Part shown: piece after piece, positions 1-11,091 of the stretch
Layout: each line of letters begins with the position of its first letter
How positions within the stretch are numbered: the stretch's first letter is position 1
Assembly (NCBI GenBank): GCA_964359975.1
Contig: CAYHWZ010000001.1
Span: 1-24,409, forward strand
From: an uncultured Elusimicrobia bacterium
Lineage (GTDB): Bacteria > Elusimicrobiota > Elusimicrobia > 2-02-FULL-39-32
Reading direction: 5' to 3'
Length of the DNA stretch: 24,409 nt
The notes under the pieces: model-generated
The model's input: only the letters and a program-made list of their open reading frames with translations
Told to the model about the DNA's origin: nothing
Databases searched by the model: none
Program-made: the position numbers and the translations under genes

Positions 1-1141
1 TGCCCATCAGCGCAGGCAAAATCGGCCGCAACGGAGCAAGACGCGGGTCATTTTCAAAATCTTCGATAAGGAGCGGTTCCTCGATGGACGCAACCGAACT
101 GTGCCCGTTGGCCCCAATCCCTGCGATAGGTATTTCCTGCGAAACCGCCATTTCAATTCCCTGAACATTGACGCAGTTCAGTCTGCCGCTTTCGTTGATC
201 AAAAACAGCGCGCCGCGTTCCATTTTGCCCACGCGCCGGAACACGTCCAGCACTTTTTTTTCAAGTATCGGCATTTCCAGCACGGAGGAAAGTTCCTGCG
301 CCGCCTGGTTCAGCGCATAGAGGTCAACGCGCATGCTTTCCAGATAACGGATGTTGGAAATGAGGTCCGCCTGCAGAGTTTCCGCGTTGGCTGGTTTCAT
401 GCCGAGTCCCATGGCCGGGCAGATTGTGAGAAAATCACAGCTCTTGCACACGTCGCCCGGAGTGGGGGCATACTTTTGTTCTTTGCGGATGGTTTCCACG
501 TGCCGGCTAATTTCACGTTCCACGGTCTGGATTTCTTCGGGAGTTTTTCTGATGGTGAGCTGCTCGTTGTCCATGAGGAAAAATATGGTCCCCTGCGACG
601 GCATGAACCGCAATTTTTTCCAGCAGGCCAGAAAGTAGAGCGCCATCTGGAAATCGTAGTCCTCTTTCTCAATGCCCGGATGCGATTTGGCGACTTTGTA
701 GTGAATGACTTCGTGGCTGCCGTCGGGCAATTTGTCGATGCGGTCTATGCGTCCGGTCAGATTAAATCCCGGCAGCGCGATGCGGAAAAATTCTTCGATG
801 AATTCAGCTTCGCCTTTGCGGTCATTGGAATTGAGAAAGTTGGATACCGCGGCCATGGCCTGCGACTTGTAGCTGGCTTCTTCTTCCTGTGAATCGTATC
901 CGGTGGAAATCCAGTTTTCCCTGAGCAGCGACTGGAGTTTTGCGAGCGAACGCTCGGCGGGTTCTTTGACGGAATAAAATTTGCTGAGAGACTGATGGAG
1001 GGACCGTCCGACGGAAAAATAGGCGCGTTCGCGCTGATAGAGCGCGGCCAGGCGGTCAACATATTTAAATTTATATTTCTGCGGACAGTCCAGAAATGTT
1101 CGCAGTGAGGTGTAGCTGACGGATATTTCCAGCGGACTCAC
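1..1141 (-). CDS. PD-(D/E)XK (RecB/AddB/Cas4-like, 4-Cys Fe-S) nuclease-domain protein fused to a GAF domain; 3' end lies outside the window
   Basis: Hand translation from GTG at 1141 (RBS AAGGGG upstream) is open for 380 codons to the window edge: MSPLEISVSYTSLRTFLDCPQKYKFKY...GRSLH...LTGRIDRIDKLPDGSHEVIHYK...FQMALY...CKSCDFLTICP, then LYALNQAAQELSSVLEM...ERGALFLINESG...PLLIEDFENDPRL (GAF-like). The listed + ORF 101..892 is its exact antisense shadow. Confidence 0.85.
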   Translation of the reverse strand, partial: MSPLEISVSYTSLRTFLDCPQKYKFKYVDRLAALYQRERAYFSVGRSLHQSLSKFYSVKEPAERSLAKLQSLLRENWISTGYDSQEEEASYKSQAMAAVSNFLNSNDRKGEAEFIEEFFRIALPGFNLTGRIDRIDKLPDGSHEVIHYKVAKSHPGIEKEDYDFQMALYFLACWKKLRFMPSQGTIFFLMDNEQLTIRKTPEEIQTVEREISRHVETIRKEQKYAPTPGDVCKSCDFLTICPAMGLGMKPANAETLQADLISNIRYLESMRVDLYALNQAAQELSSVLEMPILEKKVLDVFRRVGKMERGALFLINESGRLNCVNVQGIEMAVSQEIPIAGIGANGHSSVASIEEPLLIEDFENDPRLAPLRPILPALMG

Positions 1142-1515: not shown

Positions 1516-2547
1516 ATGGCAACGATTAAGAAAACTGACGGCGGAATAGAGTATCTATTTGGATTACTGAAAGAAAAAACAAAGACAGTCACTCGTGCCG
1601 CTTTTTGGAAAATCCCCCACAAAAACAGCCAGCATGAGGATATTTGTCTCAAGATCGGCAGATATAACAAAAACGGTTTTGCACCCGAAACACTTGAAAA
1701 TACAAATCCAAAAAGCGAGCTTACCTCAGACAATGAGGAGTTTCAAAAATTGCTTGAGTTTTTGTCGGATAACTACGAGCCGTTTAAGAAAGGGGTCAAG
1801 AAATATATCCCGCTCAATGAGAAGTTTGACCAAAAGAGAATTGAACATCTGAAAGCAATTTTTGATAATCCTGACAAGCAAACAGTTTTAGACTTCATAG
1901 CAAAGAACAACATATTGCCCGATGACTTGATTGCAGGATTGCAAAATCAAGCGCGAATGAACTCTGTTCGGGAATTTAAAACCATGCTCGACCAAAATTT
2001 AGTTGAGCAGAAATGGCAAGAATGGTTAAAGCAGAATGATTGGGTACTCGGAAGCGAGTTTGTGAGGATTTTGGACGAGCGGGAAATAGATACTGCAAAC
2101 ATTACAGATTATTTAATGCAAGCGTATGACGGCTTTCTTGATATTGTTGAGATAAAGCGACCAGATGGAAGTTTGCGATTTTGGGCCGATGGTCAAGATC
2201 ATGGAAACTATGTGCCATCTTCTGATCTGACGAAAGCCGTCACGCAGGCGACTAAATATATTTACGAAGTTGAGCGAGAAGCAAACAGCGTAAAATTTTT
2301 GGAACGGGTCGGCAATGTCAAAACTATAAAACCACGCTGTATTTTGATTTATGGAAGATCGAATGATTGGAATGACGAACAAAAAGAAGCATATCGTATT
2401 TTGAACTCCAGCTATCATAATTTAGCGATAATGACTTACGACCATGTTTTGGCGCGAGCCAAACGTATTTTGGGAATTGACGAGTCAGAAGAAATAAATC
2501 AAAATACAGACGCAGAAGAAATGAACATTGCCGATATTCCATTTTAG
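1516..2547 (+). CDS. sduA: Shedu anti-phage nuclease (DUF4263 C-terminal domain)
   Basis: E.KWQEWLKQNDWVLG, TDYLM..YDGFLDIVEIKRP (PD-(D/E)XK core), AVTQATKY, ILIYGRS and IMTYDHVLARA motifs typical of DUF4263/Shedu; variable N-terminal domain. Confidence 0.85.
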   Translation: MATIKKTDGGIEYLFGLLKEKTKTVTRAAFWKIPHKNSQHEDICLKIGRYNKNGFAPETLENTNPKSELTSDNEEFQKLLEFLSDNYEPFKKGVKKYIPLNEKFDQKRIEHLKAIFDNPDKQTVLDFIAKNNILPDDLIAGLQNQARMNSVREFKTMLDQNLVEQKWQEWLKQNDWVLGSEFVRILDEREIDTANITDYLMQAYDGFLDIVEIKRPDGSLRFWADGQDHGNYVPSSDLTKAVTQATKYIYEVEREANSVKFLERVGNVKTIKPRCILIYGRSNDWNDEQKEAYRILNSSYHNLAIMTYDHVLARAKRILGIDESEEINQNTDAEEMNIADIPF

Positions 2548-2635
2548 GTCCGTCAAAAATTCCGTCCGTCCAAGCGAGGGCATAGCGGAGGGGGGGGCTG
2601 CCATGCCCGAGCGAAATTAAATTGTGAACAGCCCC

Positions 2636-2768
2636 GCCGTTCTGCTCGAAGAAGCAGGAGACCACAGAAAAATACTCTTTTTATTAGAAAAAAAGAAATC
2701 CGGCACGCGCAAAATGAAAAAGGCAAAGAGTATTTTTCTGTGGTGATGCGAGCAGAGCGAGTAACGGC
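2636..2768. repeat. Long nested imperfect palindrome in the intergenic spacer
   Basis: Perfect 20-bp IR ACCACAGAAAAATACTCTTT (2661-2680)/AAAGAGTATTTTTCTGTGGT (2725-2744), plus outer pairs TCTGCTCG (2641-2648)/CGAGCAGA (2749-2756) and GCCGT (2636-2640)/ACGGC (2764-2768). Confidence 0.85.
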
Positions 2769-2788
2769 AGCAAATAGGGAGGTTCAAA

Positions 2789-3619
2789 ATGATGCTAGTT
2801 AAAATATTACTTATAGCAATTTGCATTCAAGTCATACAAAGCACAGATTTAGTTATTCTTGCTTTTGATAATAGACCAGCCAAAAACCTATCTAAAGACA
2901 AAGAAGATGAAGTAGGCCAAAAGGAATTTGAGCAAATGAAAAAGAATAAACCCAAAGATTATCAGCAACTTGTCATGTCAATACAAGCTGTCCTTGGCAG
3001 ACTTGGTTATGGAACCGGTCCGTTTACAGGGATTATGGATGAAAAAACCAGAACAGCCATACAGAAGTATCAATCAAATGCTGGCTTAAAGCAATCCGAA
3101 GATTTGGATTATTTAACATTTAAGAAACTTATGGATGACATGGAAGCAACGGAAGCCCTCCCTGTTGGCCTTCCTTCTCTGTCCGTTTATGTTGATATGT
3201 GGAATGATTTTGCATCGGCTCAAGGTACATGGGTTATATCAAATGAAAAACAAGCTTTCCCATTGCAAACAACTAAGATAACTTGTTATCGTGAATCTAA
3301 CTCTTGCATTGAAACAACCGCAGTGATCATGCTTGGGAAGTCTCTAACTCTCGACTCTAATTTTATAGGTGTTGAAAGATGGGATAATTTTGAAATTGTT
3401 ACAAAACCGTATGATTATCTGTGTACACGTTATGTTATTCGAATTAATAAAGCTCAAAAAACCGTGACGGCAATACGATCCACTTTAAATTCAAAAGAGG
3501 TTTGCGAGGGCGTGGAAGGCAAGGAAATGCATCTCACATTAAGTGACGGATTTAAGGTCTGGTGGGAATTAGAGGAAACGCGAAGGGCAGTTATGAAAAA
3601 GGTGCTGCTGATTGATTAA
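2789..3619 (+). CDS. Secreted protein with a peptidoglycan-binding (PG_binding_1-like) domain and an unknown Cys-containing C-terminal domain
   Basis: Hydrophobic N-terminus; IQAVLGRLGYGTGPFTGIMDEKTRTAIQKYQSNAGL matches the PG-binding consensus; RBS GGGAGG. Confidence 0.8.
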   Translation: MMLVKILLIAICIQVIQSTDLVILAFDNRPAKNLSKDKEDEVGQKEFEQMKKNKPKDYQQLVMSIQAVLGRLGYGTGPFTGIMDEKTRTAIQKYQSNAGLKQSEDLDYLTFKKLMDDMEATEALPVGLPSLSVYVDMWNDFASAQGTWVISNEKQAFPLQTTKITCYRESNSCIETTAVIMLGKSLTLDSNFIGVERWDNFEIVTKPYDYLCTRYVIRINKAQKTVTAIRSTLNSKEVCEGVEGKEMHLTLSDGFKVWWELEETRRAVMKKVLLID

Positions 3620-3637
3620 TTCACATGACAACAGTCT

Positions 3638-3664
3638 GTGCCGCTTTTAAATTTTTGATTTTTT
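3638..3664 (-). repeat. Degenerate third copy (C) of the island-boundary motif
   Basis: GTGCCGCTTTTAAATTTTTGATTTTTT vs GTGCCGCTCCTGACTTTTTGACTTTTC (4579-4605): 21/27 identical, same orientation as copy B, 18 bp after the stop of the PG-binding gene. Confidence 0.6.
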
Positions 3665-3682
3665 ACACAATTCCACAGCGTA

Positions 3683-3790
3683 TCACCTGATATTCCTCCG
3701 CGTCAGTTCCACCAGCGGTTTGAAATCCTCGTGGTCGGTTTCGCGGAAGGATTTCAAGTAACTGCCGCGCAATTCCCATGGTCGATAAAT
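3683..3790 (-). pseudogene. Possible C-terminal remnant of a Fic-family (mobile mystery protein B-like) gene
   Basis: ELRGSYLKSFRETDHEDFKPLVELTRR resembles the Fic/MMP-B C-terminal helix pattern (ELR..YI.AL..AD..D..PL..FAR); the upstream part of the ORF is not protein-like. Confidence 0.3.
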
Positions 3791-4033
3791 CCCGCACCGG
3801 ACCAAATCGGCCGCGCATGGACTGCGGGATGAACCTGAAACCTGTGTTGCTTGACTTTTGAGATATTCTCGACTTTTGCTTGTTTTCGTGAGTCTTAGCG
3901 CGAAGCTAATTGACACCATATGTTTTGAATATGGTGAGTAATCCTTTTCGCTAATCACTGTCAATAACTAGGACTCTTGATTCGGCAGAAACCCGACAAA
4001 ACCCGCCGTGATTCTGAAGTTCCCAAAGTCGCC

Positions 4034-4062
4034 TTGACGCTCTCCGCCATTTGGGGTATACT
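4034..4062 (+). promoter_or_regulatory. sigma70-type promoter of hicBA
   Basis: TTGACG-17 bp-TATACT. Confidence 0.75.
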
Positions 4063-4095
4063 TTACAAAATGGACGCTGAAAAGATGGAGGCACG

Positions 4096-4329
4096 ATGAA
4101 AGCAAAGCATCACCCGTATAAATTTACCGTAGTCATTGAGCAGGACGAGGACGGCGTATTCGTTGCGTCCTGCCCGGCGCTTCAAGGTTGTTACACTCAA
4201 GGCCGCACCTACAAAGAATCCGTCAAAAATATCCGCGACGCAATCAAACTCCATCTGGAAGCCAGAAAAAAAGTGGGCGAGTTCCTGCCGCACGAAGTAG
4301 GAGTTGAAAAAGTACTCGTATCCGCTTAA
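4096..4329 (+). CDS. hicB: HicB-family antitoxin (short, no DNA-binding tail)
   Basis: FTVVIEQDEDGVFVASCPALQGCYTQGRTYKESVKNIRDAIKLHLE; RBS GGAGG. Confidence 0.92.
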   Translation: MKAKHHPYKFTVVIEQDEDGVFVASCPALQGCYTQGRTYKESVKNIRDAIKLHLEARKKVGEFLPHEVGVEKVLVSA

Positions 4330-4335
4330 CCGCTT

Positions 4336-4560
4336 GTGGGAGAACGTCTTTCACCCGCAAGTCCGAAGGAGATTGTCCGCGTCATCCACCGCTTGGGATT
4401 CAGACTCATCCGGCAGAGCGGCAGCCACGCTATATACAAACACGCTGACGGCAGATGGACGACAATCCCGATGCACGCTGGCGACATAGGCAAAGGACTC
4501 CTGCGAAAAATCATCAACGATTTGGATCTGACCGTCGAAGAATTTAACAAAATGAGGTGA
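4336..4560 (+). CDS. hicA: HicA-family mRNA interferase toxin
   Basis: LGFRLIRQSGSHAIYKHADGRWTTIPMHAGDIGKGLLRKI, with the GSH catalytic motif. Confidence 0.92.
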   Translation: MGERLSPASPKEIVRVIHRLGFRLIRQSGSHAIYKHADGRWTTIPMHAGDIGKGLLRKIINDLDLTVEEFNKMR

Positions 4561-4572
4561 ACTCGAAGACCG

Positions 4573-4597
4573 GAAACCGTGCCGCTCCTGACTTTTT
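4573..4597 (-). repeat. Right island-boundary repeat (copy B)
   Basis: GAAACCGTGCCGCTCCTGACTTTTT; inverted partner of 1340-1364; 12 bp after the hicA stop. Confidence 0.85.
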
Positions 4598-4771
4598 GAC
4601 TTTTCAGAATACCTCAGCTCTTATCAGATTTTGACAACCTAAAATTGGAACCAACAACTGCGTAGTTGTTTTGAATCCCGATACATTCACTCGTCTGACC
4701 ACTTGGCAAAAACATCATCCACGCAACGCATTTGATTGCGCGGAACGCATTTTGTATCGTAGATAATACAC

Positions 4772-6913
4772 ATGAAAACGCAAAGTTCTGCAAGCCGTTC
4801 CGCGGCCGCGGCAGTGCTCCTTGTCTGGACCGCGTTTGTGCTGGCTCTCCAGATTCATTGGCTCCGCACTGACACCCGCCCGCCTTCGTGGGACGAGTCG
4901 CACCACCTCCGCCTGTCCGCGCAATATACGGACGAATTTCTTTCCGGGAAATGGGGCCGCATTTTTGAGGAACACTATTTCAATTATCCGCCGCTCTACC
5001 ATTGGACTCTTGCTCCTGTCCTCAAAGTCATGCGCGGCGAATCAGACGCGGCCGGAGCGCTCAATTGTCTGTATCTGCTCCTGCTCATCAGTTCGGTTTT
5101 TTTCACGATAAAATATCTCTGCGATGATGACCCCAATCCGTGGCCGCCGGTCATCGGCGCAGTGATTGTCTCGTCGTATCCGTTCCTTTTCTATATCGGA
5201 CATTTCCCGCTTCTCGACCTGCCGCTGACCGCGTGGACTGCGTTTGGTGTGCTGTGTCTGGCAAGGTGCAACGGGTTCTGCGATAGGCCCTGGTCTGTTC
5301 TGCTCGGTGTTGCATGGGCGTGCGGCAGTATGACCAAGTGGACTTATTTTTCATATATGCTTTTCCCGACGGTGTGGCTTGGGGTGAAATCTTTTCCGCG
5401 GGAAAAACGGAACATCCTGCTTTTTATCTGCACCGCGCTCGTCCTGCTCCTGCCGTGGTATTATCCCAACTATATTTTTGTAATCAGACGGATGCTGATT
5501 TCGAGCGGGTCAGGAGCAATGGAGGGCGACCCGTCTATTTTCCGGCCGGAATCGTGGCTGTGGTACGCGCGCCATTTTCCGATTGAAATGGGATGGTGGG
5601 GTACGGTACTGGCCTGCGCCGGTCTGGTCATCGCCATACGCGACCGCAGATGGGGGGTGCTGGTCGGATGTGTTCTGTTTCCGTACATGTTCTGGAGTTT
5701 GACGAGGAACAAGGATTTGCGTTATATAATGCCGATACTTCCGTCGGTGGCAATATTGAGCGCGCTGGTTTTCCGGCATGTCAAAACGCGCTGGATTGTT
5801 GTATGCGTGATGATATGCGGTGCGCAGTTGGGCTGGTCCGCGCTCGCGCCCATGGGTTCGCGGGGCCCGTCAGCCGCCGGTCACACTTTCCGCCTGTTGG
5901 GAGAGTACGGCGCGTATCCTCCGGTCCGCGAAGACTGGCGCCAAAAAGAAATCCTCGACCGCGTGCTCCAACTTAAAAATCCGGAACGGGACTGGTGCAT
6001 TCTGCGCACGCTCTCGTGGGAACCTTTCCTCAGCAATCTTTCTCTGCGCTATGCGTGCGTGCAATACGGCTGGTACGGACAGATTAAACCGCTCAATTCA
6101 GACTATTCCGAAAAGTTCGCGTTCACTGATTTTATTCTCGACCACACAGATGGCGCAATGGACCGTCAAAGTCAGGACCTGATTAAAAATTCCAAATGGT
6201 TCAAAAAAGTTTTTGAACTGGAAACCGAGTGGCCCATGCCTCCGGGCGCGGGCAAAGCCAGTCTGTATAAACTTGCGCCTCAGATAGTGAATGGTTTCAG
6301 TGCGGAAAAATTAAGGCGCCGTCTGGCAAATACGCCGCTGAACCCTGACTTGAAATTGGGCAAGGTGCGTTTTGATTTTGTCCCAGACCGAGGAGCGCAG
6401 GCGGAAACGGGGCTGTTTGACAAAATTTCCGTGCGTGTGGACGGCGCCGAGTTCCGCGGGTTTCCGCTGGGCAGTCTGGCTGCGGAACTGGAACAAATCC
6501 AGCTGAACCTGCCGCTACTGGATGAGACCGGTGAATTGCAGGTGCTGAGCATGGGACGTCTCACTCCGCATGTGAAGGTGGACGCGGACAAACTGCGCGG
6601 TTTTCTCATGAATCAGGCCGGAAAATATTTGACGGACGCGAAAATCGTGCTGGACAATAACCGTGTGAAAATCGACTGTATGTCGCGTTACGGTTTAAGC
6701 GCGGGCGTGACTGTGGGGCTGGAATTGAACAGAGAAGAAGGTTATATTTTTCAGCGGATTGAGCGGATTAAAATTGGATGGTTCCGCGTGCCGAGATTTC
6801 TCTACAAACATTTTGCGGACCGCAGGCATTCGCTGCTGTCCGGACCGGGCATGCCGTTCGATCTGAATATCCGCAGTCTTGAACTGCAGGGGAATGTACT
6901 GAAAATCAACTGA
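4772..6913 (+). CDS. GT-C fold membrane glycosyltransferase (ArnT/PMT_2-like) with an extended C-terminal soluble domain
   Basis: PPSWDESHH and YFNYPPLYHW loop motifs, LLDLPLTAW, GSMTKWTY, about 10-12 TM segments; beta-rich C-terminal ~230 aa. Confidence 0.85.
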   Translation: MKTQSSASRSAAAAVLLVWTAFVLALQIHWLRTDTRPPSWDESHHLRLSAQYTDEFLSGKWGRIFEEHYFNYPPLYHWTLAPVLKVMRGESDAAGALNCLYLLLLISSVFFTIKYLCDDDPNPWPPVIGAVIVSSYPFLFYIGHFPLLDLPLTAWTAFGVLCLARCNGFCDRPWSVLLGVAWACGSMTKWTYFSYMLFPTVWLGVKSFPREKRNILLFICTALVLLLPWYYPNYIFVIRRMLISSGSGAMEGDPSIFRPESWLWYARHFPIEMGWWGTVLACAGLVIAIRDRRWGVLVGCVLFPYMFWSLTRNKDLRYIMPILPSVAILSALVFRHVKTRWIVVCVMICGAQLGWSALAPMGSRGPSAAGHTFRLLGEYGAYPPVREDWRQKEILDRVLQLKNPERDWCILRTLSWEPFLSNLSLRYACVQYGWYGQIKPLNSDYSEKFAFTDFILDHTDGAMDRQSQDLIKNSKWFKKVFELETEWPMPPGAGKASLYKLAPQIVNGFSAEKLRRRLANTPLNPDLKLGKVRFDFVPDRGAQAETGLFDKISVRVDGAEFRGFPLGSLAAELEQIQLNLPLLDETGELQVLSMGRLTPHVKVDADKLRGFLMNQAGKYLTDAKIVLDNNRVKIDCMSRYGLSAGVTVGLELNREEGYIFQRIERIKIGWFRVPRFLYKHFADRRHSLLSGPGMPFDLNIRSLELQGNVLKIN

Positions 6914-6980
6914 AATATTCGGGTTAACGATAATGCGGTTTAGTTAGCCAATTTGATATAAAAACTCAAGTATTTTGTGT

Positions 6981-7080
6981 CGTCATTCCCGCGAAAGCGG
7001 GAATCCAGAGAGATACAGAGTTTGAAACTTTCCTCGAAGGCCACTTTAAAGACTGGATTCCCGCTTTCGCGGGAATGACG
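6981..7080. repeat. REP-like doublet (perfect 28-bp inverted repeat, each arm itself palindromic)
   Basis: CGTCATTCCCGCGAAAGCGGGAATCCAG (6981-7008) and CTGGATTCCCGCTTTCGCGGGAATGACG (7053-7080), between convergent genes. Confidence 0.92.
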
Positions 7081-7121
7081 CATTCTCGACGGAAATTGCT
7101 CTTATCAAAACCGTATTCGTG

Positions 7122-7880
7122 TTAACGGGTTTTCGGTTTGAAAATCCCGGCTTCAACAATGCCCAGCTTGGCGAGATAATACTGGCCCAGCACCACCAAC
7201 GCTTCCAGTCCGTACTGTGTGCTCCGCCGGAAATTGATGCTGGACGCTTCCGCAAAATATTTGGCAGGGACCGGCACATCGCCCATACGCAGTTTGTGAT
7301 ACGCGCACTGGATTAAAAACTGCTGGTCAAATACAAAATCGTCCGAATTGGTTTCCCACCGGATAGTCTCCAGCGTCTTGCGGTTGTACGCGCGCATACC
7401 GGAATGGAACTCTCCCAGATTCTGTCCGAGCAAAAAATTTTCCATCAAAGTCAGGCCGCGGTTCGCGATATATTTGTATGCGGGCATTCCTCCGGACAGA
7501 GCTTCGTCGCGCGTGCGGATACGGTTGCCGAGCATCACGTCGCACACGCCCAGTTCAATGGGCAGTATCAGCGCAGGTATCAGACGTCCGTCGTACTGGT
7601 AGTCGGGATGGATCATCACTACGATTTCCGCGCCCATTTCCAGCGCGCTGCGGTAACAGGTCTTCTGATTTCCGCCGTACCCGATATTTTTTTCGTGCGA
7701 CACAACTTTCAGGCCGAGTTCGCGCGCGCGGGCCACGGTCTTGTCGCGCGACGCGTCGTCAACGAGCAGTATTTCAGCGTTCAGACTTTTGGGAATAGAA
7801 TCCACGGTCGCCTTCAGGGTTTTTTCCGCGTTGTATGCGGGCATGACCACAACGATTTTAGGATGTTTGTTCTCAGTCAT
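7122..7880 (-). CDS. GT2 glycosyltransferase (polyprenol-phosphate sugar synthase-like)
   Basis: VVVMPAYNAEK, LVDDASRD, NIGYGGNQK, IHPDYQY, GSGMRAY-like SGMRAY, FVFD; start set at MTENKH (7880), giving an ATGA overlap with the upstream stop. Confidence 0.92.
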   Translation of the reverse strand: MTENKHPKIVVVMPAYNAEKTLKATVDSIPKSLNAEILLVDDASRDKTVARARELGLKVVSHEKNIGYGGNQKTCYRSALEMGAEIVVMIHPDYQYDGRLIPALILPIELGVCDVMLGNRIRTRDEALSGGMPAYKYIANRGLTLMENFLLGQNLGEFHSGMRAYNRKTLETIRWETNSDDFVFDQQFLIQCAYHKLRMGDVPVPAKYFAEASSINFRRSTQYGLEALVVLGQYYLAKLGIVEAGIFKPKTR

Positions 7881-9379
7881 TGAAAGAGGTCCTTTAACTG
7901 AAGCGTTCGCAGTTTCTCTCCGAAAGTACGGCGGTTTTCGGCTTTCAGCGGCGCTATCCAGGTCAATGTTTTCTGCGTTTGCGGCGGCGTATTCTTGCGC
8001 CACATCTCTGTTTCTGCGGACCCGTCGTTCACCGCGTATATTGCATAACCCTTCTGCGATACAGTTTCCATCTGCGCCGCCGACGGCAGATACGGGTACG
8101 CAATGATACTGTCCGTAAAAAACATGGTCTCAATATAGTGCGGACTGTTGAAAAGCACAGCGCGCGCGTTTCCTATTGGTGAAACAAATTCAGTGATATG
8201 TTTTTCCTCCACAGCAAAAAGTCCCGTCCCGATCTGGATCATTTTCTCTCCTGTCACGCGGACTGTCAGTATCAGTCCGGCAATCAGCGCCGCCTTCAGT
8301 ATTGTCCGCCGTGCTCCGACAGTCTTCCGGGCATTTTCCCTCAGCCACACGGCTGCCGAAGCCATTGAAATGAACAATGCCGGCGCGCAATAGTTGACCA
8401 GTGTGGAAATCCGAGTGCGCGCCGCAGAAAAAATCATGTACGGCGCCAAAAACCACAACAACACTATCCAGCGGTTATCCGAACGGTTTTTATACAAAAA
8501 ATAGAGCATAAATGGAAGCGCAAAAAGCGCAAACTCGCCGTAATCGCGCGGTATGTTCTTGAAATGGTAGAGCCAGTCGTCCGGTCTGTCGCCCATCTGC
8601 GCTGTAAAAAAGTGGCCCCACTGCACAGACTCCGCCGCGCGGAATTCCGCCGGCCATTGGTGCGCCGAATATAACCGCCACGGCAGAAATACACAGAACG
8701 CGGACGCAAGTATGATGGCGGACTTTGCAAAATGGTCACGGTTCCGGTACTTGTCAAATATTGCCAGCGAAATAAAAAGTCCCCACGATAAAAGCGCGGG
8801 ATACGATTTCGATAAAAGACCCAGTCCAATCAAAATGCCGGACAAAACATACAGCGCAGGTTTGCGGTTCTGCAGCGCGGCCAGCCACGACCAGACGGAA
8901 AATTCCACAAAGAAAAAAAGCGAGTTGTCCACGTTGTCCATGCCGTACGTACCGGAATTGAAAATGAGCAGATGTCCGGACAGCGTGTGGAAAGCCGCAG
9001 CCGCCAGCGCAGTTTTTTCATCGAAAAGCTGGCGCGCAATCAAAAAAGTCAGTAGAATCGAAAGTGTGCCGAACACAAAACACGGCAGCCGGTACGACCA
9101 CGGACGCACGCCGAAAAGTTTCATGCACGCGCCGCCCAGCCACAGTCCCAGCGGGGGTTTGTGCAGCCAGACATGGTTGCCCTGCCAGTTGGCCGCGTCA
9201 TAGCCCGGCAAAGGGTCGGTGTAGAGCATCGGCACCCACGACTTTTGCGCGATATTCTTGGCAACAAGCGCGTGGAACCGTTCGTCCCATTGATGCAGGT
9301 TGGGCTGTGCAATGCCCCAAAGACGGAGCGCCGCGCCCGCAATCATAATTGCCGCCAGCCACGCGCGCGGAGATTTCAT
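7877..9379 (-). CDS. GT-C fold membrane glycosyltransferase (ArnT/GT83-like)
   Basis: LHQWDERFH, WLHKPPLGLW, PWSYRLP, GLGLLSK motifs; polytopic. Confidence 0.9.
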   Translation of the reverse strand: MKSPRAWLAAIMIAGAALRLWGIAQPNLHQWDERFHALVAKNIAQKSWVPMLYTDPLPGYDAANWQGNHVWLHKPPLGLWLGGACMKLFGVRPWSYRLPCFVFGTLSILLTFLIARQLFDEKTALAAAAFHTLSGHLLIFNSGTYGMDNVDNSLFFFVEFSVWSWLAALQNRKPALYVLSGILIGLGLLSKSYPALLSWGLFISLAIFDKYRNRDHFAKSAIILASAFCVFLPWRLYSAHQWPAEFRAAESVQWGHFFTAQMGDRPDDWLYHFKNIPRDYGEFALFALPFMLYFLYKNRSDNRWIVLLWFLAPYMIFSAARTRISTLVNYCAPALFISMASAAVWLRENARKTVGARRTILKAALIAGLILTVRVTGEKMIQIGTGLFAVEEKHITEFVSPIGNARAVLFNSPHYIETMFFTDSIIAYPYLPSAAQMETVSQKGYAIYAVNDGSAETEMWRKNTPPQTQKTLTWIAPLKAENRRTFGEKLRTLQLKDLFQ

Positions 9380-11091
9380 TTTTTGAGAAATGTCACCATC
9401 AGGCCTGCGGCCTCCTGCACCGAAACCGCTTTTCCCGGAATCTCAGGTCCCGGCATGTGCGCGCCGATATAAACGTACCGGTCCAGCGCGCGGACATGTT
9501 CCGTATACGTCGGGTACCGGTCCGGTCCGCTCGACGGTGCGATTATCACCCGTTCGTCCGTCAAGAGAGTCACATAATATGCGGTCCAGTAGTCGGCATA
9601 TCCGCCGTCCGCGCTGTTTTCCAGCAGGATTTTGGCGGTCTGTTCATAAGGATTCAACAATTCGCGCGTCTGCCATTTCCGCACATTGGCCGTGACCTGG
9701 GCCGTCAGGAGCAAAAGCAAAAGCATGATGCCCGCAATTTTGTTCCGCACAAAAATATCTTTTAAAATCTAGACGATGCCGAGCGGCAGACAGAAATACA
9801 GCGGCACCATGTACCGCAGAGACGAAACGTCCGCCAGCTGGTTGCAGAACGTGCCGAGCGCAATCGTGCAAACCGCCAGACTCAGCAGCGTAAATTCCGC
9901 AGGCAGAGGTTTGTCCTGCAAAATGCGTTCCCGGACAGCGCGGAACCATTTCCAAAATAGAACTGCAAATCCCGCGCTTACTGCCAAAGTTCCGGTGATA
10001 CCCAAAGATTTTACGTCAGTTTCACCCGCCATCCTGGGAATCATTTCAGTCACAGTCATCCTGAAATTCTGCAGAAACACCGGCAGAGATACGAATCCTC
10101 CGGGCGAAGCAGGCGGACGTCCGATAAAATATCCGATTATCGCTGGCAAATACCCGATGAGAAATCCCTGCGCCGCATGTTTGACCGGAGGCATGCCCCA
10201 CAGCGCAAAAATTTGCTGACGGATAAACTTGTGACCCGCGATTACAAAAACCGCGCCGCCCATCAGCAGACTGGATTTGAATATCGGCCAGAAATAAAGT
10301 TTGATTGTCTTGCTGTGCACGGTAAAAATCCAGTCGCCATACAGCCAGAGTACCAGCGCCACTGCAAGATTAGCGCAGTTGTACAGGTTGACCGCCGCGA
10401 GCAGGTACCGGAGCGGAACCGGTACCGGAGCATTTTGCAGGAGCACGAACTCGCGCCATATTTTTTCACGCGAAAATTGTCTCAGCCGGTTCTTAATATC
10501 AGTCCACTGTTCCGGACCTGTCCGTGCGATGAAAAAATGCAAGGCAATGGCCGCCCAAAACAGCGCAATCAGACGGAAATAGTACCAGGAAAAACCCGCC
10601 ACCAGTCCGAATGCGAAAAGCAGTCCGCGATTGCGCGCGCCGTGGGAAATACGCTTCGCCAGCAAAAAGTGCGCCAACCCCAGATTCATTACCAGTATAT
10701 AGTTGTAAGTGGAAAAAGTGATGGACTGGAACGCGGGCGGCGCAAGCGCGAGAATCAGCGTGGAAACCGCCGCAGTCTTTTCATCCGTTATCGCCCGCAG
10801 ATAAAAAAAGTATCCGGTAATCAGTGTAAGCGAAAAAAACAGCGGCAGACAATGCATGACGCACGGAGTCGCGCCCCAAATGCGGAACAGCGGCATCAGC
10901 AATAGCGGGTCGAGCGAACCATAGTACCCTTCGCCCCAATAATAAGGAGCAAATTCTCCGCGCAAAAAATGTTTTGCCATCAGCCCGAGAATCGCCGTAT
11001 CCGAACTGAAAAAAATGTCCCAATAAACCACATACGGGACCCTGATTAAAAACCCCGCGGTCAAAAGCGTGCCCAGCAATAGCGCAGTCAT
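9376..11091 (-). pseudogene. GT-C-like membrane glycosyltransferase interrupted by an in-frame TAG at 9769-9771
   Basis: ORFs 9769..11091 (FSSDTAILGLMAKH, YYWGEGYYGSLDP) and 9376..9750 (GYADYWTAYY...DRYPTY) share a frame and are joined by ATT TTA AAA GAT ATT TTT: ...LPLGIV*ILKDIFVRNKIAGIMLLLL...; 571 aa if read through. Confidence 0.7.

Follow-up and report, generated by a model that had tools for sequence, protein, structure and literature searches.

A candidate diguanylate cyclase of uncultured Elusimicrobiota with a predicted Fe-S nuclease domain at its N-terminus

The stretch analyzed here, called the window, comprises the first 24,409 nucleotides of contig CAYHWZ010000001.1 of an uncultured Elusimicrobia bacterium (GenBank assembly GCA_964359975.1), and it opens within a minus-strand gene that combines a predicted iron-sulfur (Fe-S) nuclease domain with signaling domains. 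Positions 2–1141 contain a 380-codon open reading frame that starts with GTG at 1141–1139, is preceded by a ribosome-binding site (AAGGGG) and is still open at base 2, in agreement with an earlier note, made from the DNA letters, in which an open frame of 380 residues was seen here. Since the window and contig C1 of the genome begin at the same base, the gene lacks a stop codon because it was cut by the assembly. What the window holds is thus the 5′ part (residues 1–380) of a nuclease-GAF-GGDEF gene, colinear from residue 1 with homologues of 590–654 residues.

The missing C-terminus was searched for in the same genome with window bases 1–1200 as query. Window positions 1–85 overlap the end of contig C52 (G000:C52, 10443–10527), with 83 of the 85 bases identical and two mismatches, and C52 carries the frame on for 222 codons that encode the part of GAF missing from the window and, after it, a GGDEF domain (L003:9772–10527, minus strand). 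Both halves are open, in the same frame and colinear with homologues, and the merged protein of 603 residues aligns without gaps to these proteins, the closest of which have 606–607 residues. On C52 two genes follow the fusion gene, the first for an HExxH membrane protein and the second for a Trm112-methyltransferase fusion, the same order as on the 32-kb contig of the closest homologue, P0002 (60% identity). Moreover, public contigs of the sequencing runs X3 and X5 cross the left end of the window, carrying the C52 base at position 31. Judged from these sequences, the C1–C52 join is very likely real, and differences between strains, as hinted at by the two mismatches, would have interrupted the assembly. 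By profile and model, the merged gene of ~603 codons encodes a nuclease domain that a helix of ~33 residues joins to a GAF domain, which is connected in turn by a second long helix to a canonical GGDEF domain. The earlier note had supposed that the nuclease-GAF module feeds a signaling enzyme; extension leftward through C52 gives a predicted GGDEF diguanylate cyclase in that place.

The nuclease domain (residues 8–242; 416–1120, minus strand, as for all features of this gene) is of the Cas4/AddB-type PD-(D/E)XK kind. It matches PDDEXK_1 (PF12705) over residues 8–242 with an E-value of 2.4e-34 (119.8 bits against a cut-off of 22) and, just over the threshold, Pfam Cas_Cas4 (PF01930; 28.1 bits against 22.7), so that both nuclease profiles named in the earlier note score above their cut-offs. 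The motifs read there are likewise all present: C19, G45xxxH49, G130-R-I-D133, H147-Y-K149 (with CAC at 703–701 as the His codon), Q165xxxY169 and C232-x2-C235-x5-C241. In an alignment of 55 sequences, C19, C232, C235, C241, D133 and K149 are invariant, and Y169 and an Asp at position 147 each occur in at least 90% of the sequences. Q165, counted within the fusion family only, is invariant together with Y169 in family alignments of 15 and 20 sequences. Cys19 (codon at 1085–1087) would be the N-terminal ligand of a predicted Fe-S cluster and Cys232, Cys235 and Cys241 (CxxCx5C, 419–448) its C-terminal ligands, these last three lying ~10 residues ahead of a long linker helix. Asp133 of motif II (GRID, 743–745) is a predicted metal ligand. 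Motif III (695–703) is H147-Y148-K149 in the window, as against D-Y-K in 30 of the 33 members of the family. The full PD-(D/E)XK catalytic triad is thus incomplete in the window, with D133 and K149 present and His at position 147.

An AlphaFold2 model of residues 1–262, built with 55 aligned relatives, reached a predicted local distance difference test (pLDDT) score of 92.3 and a predicted template modeling (TM) score of 0.87. Solved relatives were recognized by fold only, as a sequence search with residues 1–260 against PDB chains returned nothing at E ≤ 0.01. The best solved match to residues 1–262 is ACE1 (9iab; TM score 0.70, Foldseek E 5e-12), followed by the AdnA nuclease domain, Dna2, Cas4 SSO0001 and AddB. 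The best-ranked 50 PDB chains, 48 of them with E ≤ 0.001, are from Cas4, AdnAB, AddAB, Dna2, Exo5, MGME1, RecE, a putative exonuclease (3l0a) and RecBCD, which marks the fold as RecB-type. Among Swiss-Prot models, those of AddB nuclease domains and of Dna2 match best. Ordinary exonucleases of the RecB family, along with helicase-nuclease fusions, are the stand-alone proteins to which the domain is most closely related.

ACE1 resembles the window domain in its PD-(D/E)XK core and in having one N-terminal and three C-terminal cysteines; its D-DxK site holds Mg2+, and the 1 + 3 cysteines hold an Fe4S4 cluster known as an “iron staple” (PMC12094033). However, the two share only 17–18% identity, and ACE1 is a stand-alone single-stranded DNA (ssDNA) endonuclease of the Cas4 family, with ~270 residues, that partners a prokaryotic Argonaute and has neither GAF nor GGDEF domain, whereas no Argonaute was seen here and His replaces the DxK Asp in the window. 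The same Fe-S “iron staple” nuclease fold (TM scores 0.5–0.7) occurs in AdnA/AdnB, AddB and Dna2 (PDB 6PPR, 9NP6, 3U4Q, 5EAN), and UvrD_C-PDDEXK_1 helicase-nucleases are among the proteins closest in sequence that do not belong to the fusion family. In these DNA-end-processing motors the domain is C-terminal or internal, while in the fusion it is N-terminal and followed by signaling domains, and the AddB models score far under threshold (25.9 bits against 486). Cas4 (PDB 4IC1, 8D3L) has the cysteine pattern and fold in common with the window, but the Cas4 model TIGR00372 gives P0002 only 32 bits against a cut-off of 65. No cas gene was called beside the fusion in six homologue contexts or found among the scanned open reading frames of the window (1516–11091) and C52, CRISPR arrays not having been searched for. 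On these comparisons the nuclease domain of the fusion does not appear to be a Cas4 proper.

The nuclease domain is followed by one long predicted helix (residues ~250–288; 278–394) with a conserved DLYxLN core, modeled as helix 253–285 in P0002, and by the N-terminal two thirds of a GAF domain (residues ~290–380; 2–274), the remainder of which lies on C52. The GAF domain that the earlier note had placed here scores weakly in the window fragment alone (PF01590, residues 296–371, E 0.19, 12.7 bits, under the cut-off), but it becomes significant with the C52 continuation (25.5 bits against 22.4) and is recognized in homologues (29.9 bits in P0002; 61.9 bits on GAF_2 in P0045). The GGDEF domain (PF00990) on C52 scores 160.9 bits against 23.8, and P0002 scores 174 bits against a cut-off of 37 with TIGR00254. 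The GGEEF signature stands at residue 520 of the merged protein, the motifs LDLDHF..NVND..GHQQGD (DxD and the guanine-reading Asn and Asp) are intact, and an I-site precedes the signature (RPSD-VPARY-GGEEF, with RxxD five residues before GGDEF). A full-length AlphaFold2 model of P0002 (pLDDT 84) places, in order, the nuclease domain, helix 253–285, GAF at 290–412, helix 415–442 and GGDEF; in this model the layout is that of dimeric sensor cyclases. GAF-GGDEF cyclases with an RxxD I-site of the PleD and WspR type match the last 220 residues of the fusion along GAF-helix-GGDEF and share GGEEF, RxxD and the guanine readers. NCBIfam DgcA (NF041606) matches P0002 residues 385–599 with E 7e-60, although at 203 bits it stays under its equivalog cut-off of 370. 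The genome as a whole contains 14 GGDEF, 8 PilZ and 1 EAL matches that make up its cyclic di-GMP (c-di-GMP) toolkit.

Relatives were collected with a word-indexed search and an exhaustive HMMER search, followed by a survey of 200 genomes of the phylum. The first two gave ~21 cluster representatives with both nuclease and GGDEF domains, and the phylum sample 14 further genomes, with frames of 536–617 residues, 11 of which were fetched and aligned. The named records are metagenome-assembled genomes of Elusimicrobia/Elusimicrobiota (groundwater, Crystal Geyser) and one bin labeled Ignavibacteria, and one NCBI record calls a family protein “diguanylate cyclase [Endomicrobia bacterium]”. Nuclease domain and GAF-GGDEF part form one gene in all relatives. 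The architecture was not familiar to the earlier note, and literature searches likewise found no paper on a nuclease-GAF-GGDEF fusion, no described GAF-GGDEF member with a nuclease domain as N-terminal input and no account of an Fe-S nuclease fold as the input of a diguanylate cyclase. A FastTree phylogeny built from 218 nuclease domains groups 27 of the 33 fused ones in a single clade (support 75), the other six having no resolved placement. Two proteins of 704–716 residues, P0067 and P0089, carry the nuclease domain with two GAF domains, and no recognizable output domain was found in them. As a side observation, the window's genome also encodes a 556-residue frame with two tandem Cas4-like Fe-S nuclease domains (G000:C17:1213–2664, minus strand), and metagenomic proteins of the multi-nuclease set (P0026, P0028, P0030) have up to five such domains in tandem, with 1297 residues. 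A general association of stand-alone Cas4-like nucleases with neighboring GGDEF genes was considered and rejected, none of 74 stand-alone loci having a GGDEF gene within ~4 kb.

Conservation was counted over 33 members, the window included and some of them near-identical, whose divergence reaches down to 31–40% identity. The four cysteines, Glu116, Lys149 and Gln165 are present in all 33, Asp133 in 32, Asp147 in 30 and Tyr169 in 29. The motif III Asp is replaced in three members (His in the window, Tyr in P0045, Leu in P0063) and the motif II Asp is Asn in L018; in these four copies the cysteines, GAF and GGDEF are intact. At the other end of the protein, GGEEF occurs in 33/33 and the RxxD I-site in 31/33, with the DxD motif and both guanine readers (Asn, Asp) retained, so that the members look like ordinary c-di-GMP synthases. 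The proposal of the earlier note that the nuclease fold has been repurposed does not hold for the family, since D-Y-K is found in 30 of the 33 and nearly all other catalytic residues are kept. Nor do homologues share the H-Y-K motif: the His is confined to the window and is therefore a private variant of its lineage.

That homologues read D-Y-K is thus established, whereas the other possibility raised in the earlier note, that the His codon is an error, is contradicted by contigs built from reads. Logan contigs of runs X1 (536–937) and X2 (545–755) span the codon with zero differences. X1 and X2 are groundwater runs of one study, possibly the source of the genome, and so do not represent an independent population; as their contigs were independently built and agree, the His is not an assembly slip, although it could still be a minority variant at the population level. 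Their agreement bears on a broader alternative, in which the His arose as an error of the consensus, or in which a truncation or chimeric join at the contig break leaves the gene without function. The fragmentation of the source genome, a metagenome bin of 467 contigs that is 86.6% complete, would fit such an artefact or decaying gene, as would the two mismatches in the C52 overlap and the low depth of the public contigs (2.9–6.9). Nevertheless, we regard it as highly improbable, because the same codon occurs in the contigs of both runs, no stop interrupts the shared frame in either gene half and both halves align colinearly with homologues, the C52 synteny matches the P0002 contig, and the conserved sites are otherwise intact. 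At 46 highly conserved sites the window nuclease domain shows five deviations, mostly conservative, against three to five in the closest D-Y-K relatives; His147 aside, it deviates no more than its D-Y-K sisters and is thus not decaying. His at the DxK position most likely weakens Mg2+-dependent cleavage or shifts the metal preference, judging by what the Asp does in ACE1 (PMC12094033). The role of this Asp in RecB and AddB leads to the same expectation.

On the strength of domain order and conservation, we tentatively favor a reading in which the fusion protein is a cytoplasmic sensor diguanylate cyclase with the nuclease domain as its input module and with nucleic acid as the likely signal. 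Two chains would pair along their helices, as in other GAF-GGDEF enzymes, and the N-terminal modules would set how well both GGDEF domains meet and hence the synthesis of c-di-GMP, with product inhibition through the RxxD site. The signal would be ssDNA or a DNA end that occupies the active site of the nuclease domain, beside the Fe-S “staple”. In most members the active site looks able to cut, while the window copy, with His147 in place of a metal-binding Asp, would probably bind DNA but cut it poorly or require another metal, and might act as a pure sensor. The c-di-GMP made would feed the ordinary c-di-GMP network of the genome. The argument for a nucleic-acid signal is indirect and has two parts. 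Active-site residues are kept across deep divergence (31–40% identity), which suggests that the active site is used, as a pure redox sensor would not need it; and a catalytic Asp has been replaced in four members with the rest intact, which implies that cutting is dispensable for whatever keeps the gene. Taken together, residues held and catalysis given up favor occupancy of the site by nucleic acid as the signal.

Several points weigh against this sensor-cyclase reading. DNA binding, the cluster, cyclase activity and the coupling of the domains are predictions for all members. The true signal could come in through the GAF domain, the nuclease domain serving some unrelated purpose, and, because His can ligate metals, the window copy may still cut. 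The C1–C52 join is deduced from the 85-nt overlap with its two mismatches, the shared frame, colinearity and synteny, and not read from one molecule. The fusion is also patchy, being present in ~15 of the 200 phylum genomes (families f15, f18, f21, f22 and f26) and not found in either of two genomes, both nearly complete, from the family to which the window belongs; such a distribution implies that it is not essential.

After the favored reading, the rivals rank in the order of redox sensor, regulated nuclease and defense system. The four cysteines, the most conserved feature of the domain, are invariant in the 55 sequences even where a catalytic Asp is missing, and the last of them stands ~10 residues before the linker helix. 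Both features would suit a sensor of redox state, oxygen or nitric oxide in which oxidation or loss of the Fe-S cluster loosens the “staple”, moves the following helix and switches the cyclase, DNA having no role. Fe-S domains can serve as sensors, and for hosts that are groundwater or aquifer Elusimicrobiota exposure to oxygen is a plausible cue. Such a sensor nonetheless seems unlikely to us, because the retention of Glu116, Lys149 and Gln165 in every member despite the low identities would be unexpected if the cluster alone mattered, and because the cluster of AddB and Cas4 has been described as a structural “iron staple” (PMC12094033).

The same catalytic residues, kept in most members, together with the I-site and the kinship of the domain to ordinary RecB-family exonucleases and helicase-nuclease fusions, could also be explained if information flowed the other way. 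The nuclease would then be a DNA-processing or repair output, gated by a GAF ligand and by the GGDEF domain (through c-di-GMP at the I-site or through dimerization), and crippled in the window copy. This arrangement is less probable still. GGEEF and all substrate-binding residues are present in 33/33 members, which indicates selection for cyclase activity, and four members lack a catalytic Asp with the rest intact. In known GAF-GGDEF proteins, moreover, the signal runs from N-terminal sensors to the C-terminal GGDEF domain.

A more specific version of the favored sensor cyclase, possible though doubtful, would be a diguanylate cyclase that responds to DNA, equivalent to DisA or, loosely, to cGAS but with c-di-GMP as its product, in which ssDNA or broken ends in the Fe-S nuclease site would switch c-di-GMP synthesis and the His, Tyr and Leu variants would be non-cutting sensors. 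DisA, the DNA-integrity-scanning c-di-AMP synthase, likewise has a DNA-binding module fused to a cyclic-dinucleotide synthase, whose second-messenger output depends on the condition of the DNA. It is, however, an octamer of DAC and helix-hairpin-helix domains that makes c-di-AMP; the domains are unrelated and the messenger is different, so that the likeness is one of function and no homology is claimed. If such a cyclase exists, DNA damage, replication stress or DNA uptake would be tied to decisions on biofilm formation and motility. The inputs of diguanylate cyclases are usually sensors of small molecules, light, gas or phosphorylation, and a domain that reads DNA ends or cluster integrity would wire the state of the genome or the redox state directly to c-di-GMP in a poorly known phylum. 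The D-Y-K copies and those with H-, Y- or L-Y-K represent natural separation-of-function alleles, which makes the question an easy one in vitro. For the window itself the outcome is more modest, as the gene lies on two contigs and the His is private to the lineage and not a family trait. New here are four findings: the gene is split, its His is private, other members have also lost a catalytic Asp naturally, and the partner always present downstream belongs to the core genes of the phylum.

That partner is the gene for the HExxH membrane protein (~230 residues), which lies directly downstream of the fusion on the same strand in 21/21 contexts (six metagenomic contexts, C52 and 14/14 phylum-sample genomes), the two genes usually overlapping by a few bases. 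In the genome of the window it occupies C52 positions 9069–9752 (L003, minus strand), and the protein has an invariant HExxH and a weak match to Peptidase_M50B. It is present in single copy in 186 of 201 genomes of the phylum, as befits a core gene, and also occurs without the fusion, being preceded by a PMT_2 glycosyltransferase gene in the sister genus of the window. Given this near-universality, the constant adjacency may reflect inherited synteny as much as function. A structure-based complex prediction for P0002 and the HExxH protein scored 0.00, which is evidence neither way. The idea that a cyclase generally precedes the HExxH gene was rejected, since this was seen in only 1 of 20 fusion-less genomes (G151), where two tandem GGDEF genes (472 and 456 residues, with other N-termini) stand directly upstream of it (L112, G151:C6:4376–7500). 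In the sister genus, a gene for a REC-HD-GYP protein, a response-regulator c-di-GMP phosphodiesterase, is found three genes upstream of the HExxH gene, with PMT_2 between them (L102, G112:C42, 640–1662, plus strand). In four contexts the HExxH gene is followed by a gene for a third conserved membrane protein of ~199 residues (L005 10803–11405, L006 8498–9097, L007 2803–3402, L009 8479–9069). It has no Pfam or NCBIfam match, and its GDxxAAxxG...KSLEGS motif resembles polyprenol/dolichol kinases by eye; the window genome has a HAD-type acid phosphatase in its place. Other neighbors are mostly housekeeping genes (enolase, GatB, ClpB, GlyS, L21).

On the opposite strand, 375 nt from the fusion gene, the window carries a full-length gene for the Shedu protein SduA (1516–2547, plus strand; PADLOC PDLC00385, E 7e-145; Pfam SduA_C). 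Together with a gene for a peptidoglycan-binding-domain protein (2789–3619), it lies within a segment of 3.2 kb between the two arms (1334–1364 and 4573–4603) of a 31-nt inverted repeat that is 87% complementary, and this segment looks like a cassette inserted beside the promoter region of the cyclase gene. The proximity of Shedu, the fact that the closest solved structure, ACE1, is a defense nuclease (PMC12094033), and the HExxH gene that always follows the fusion might together point to anti-phage signaling of the cyclic-oligonucleotide-based antiphage signaling system (CBASS) or type III CRISPR kind, in which the nuclease would detect invading DNA, the GGDEF domain would make a nucleotide alarm and the HExxH protein would be the effector. 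We consider this very improbable. Shedu was rejected as a functional partner because it sits in a repeat-bracketed segment and is absent from the six homologue contexts, in which no neighbor belongs to a defense-associated Pfam family; we take it for an insertion unrelated to the fusion. PADLOC gave the fusion only weak, partial matches (Cas4 and Cas10), the cyclase has the canonical c-di-GMP signature and I-site, and no nucleotide-binding domain was detected in the HExxH membrane protein. As the latter is a near-universal single-copy protein that also occurs without the fusion, it is not a dedicated effector. One of the homologue contexts, L008, has a BrnT/CopG toxin-antitoxin pair ~1.8 kb downstream.

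Some minor observations concern the surroundings of the gene. Public contigs of three studies depart from the window at 1206, 1257/1258 and 1296, and the 40-nt stretch 1257–1296 recurs with 4 mismatches on other contigs of X1, X2 and X3; this points to a dispersed repeat or, alternatively, to a variable boundary immediately upstream of the gene. One aquifer metatranscriptome run contained 8% of the sampled words, which shows nothing on expression. Farther into the window, positions 4772–11091 hold a cluster of PMT-family (dolichyl-phosphate-mannose type) and family-2 glycosyltransferase genes, one of them fused to an LmeA-like lipid-binding domain.

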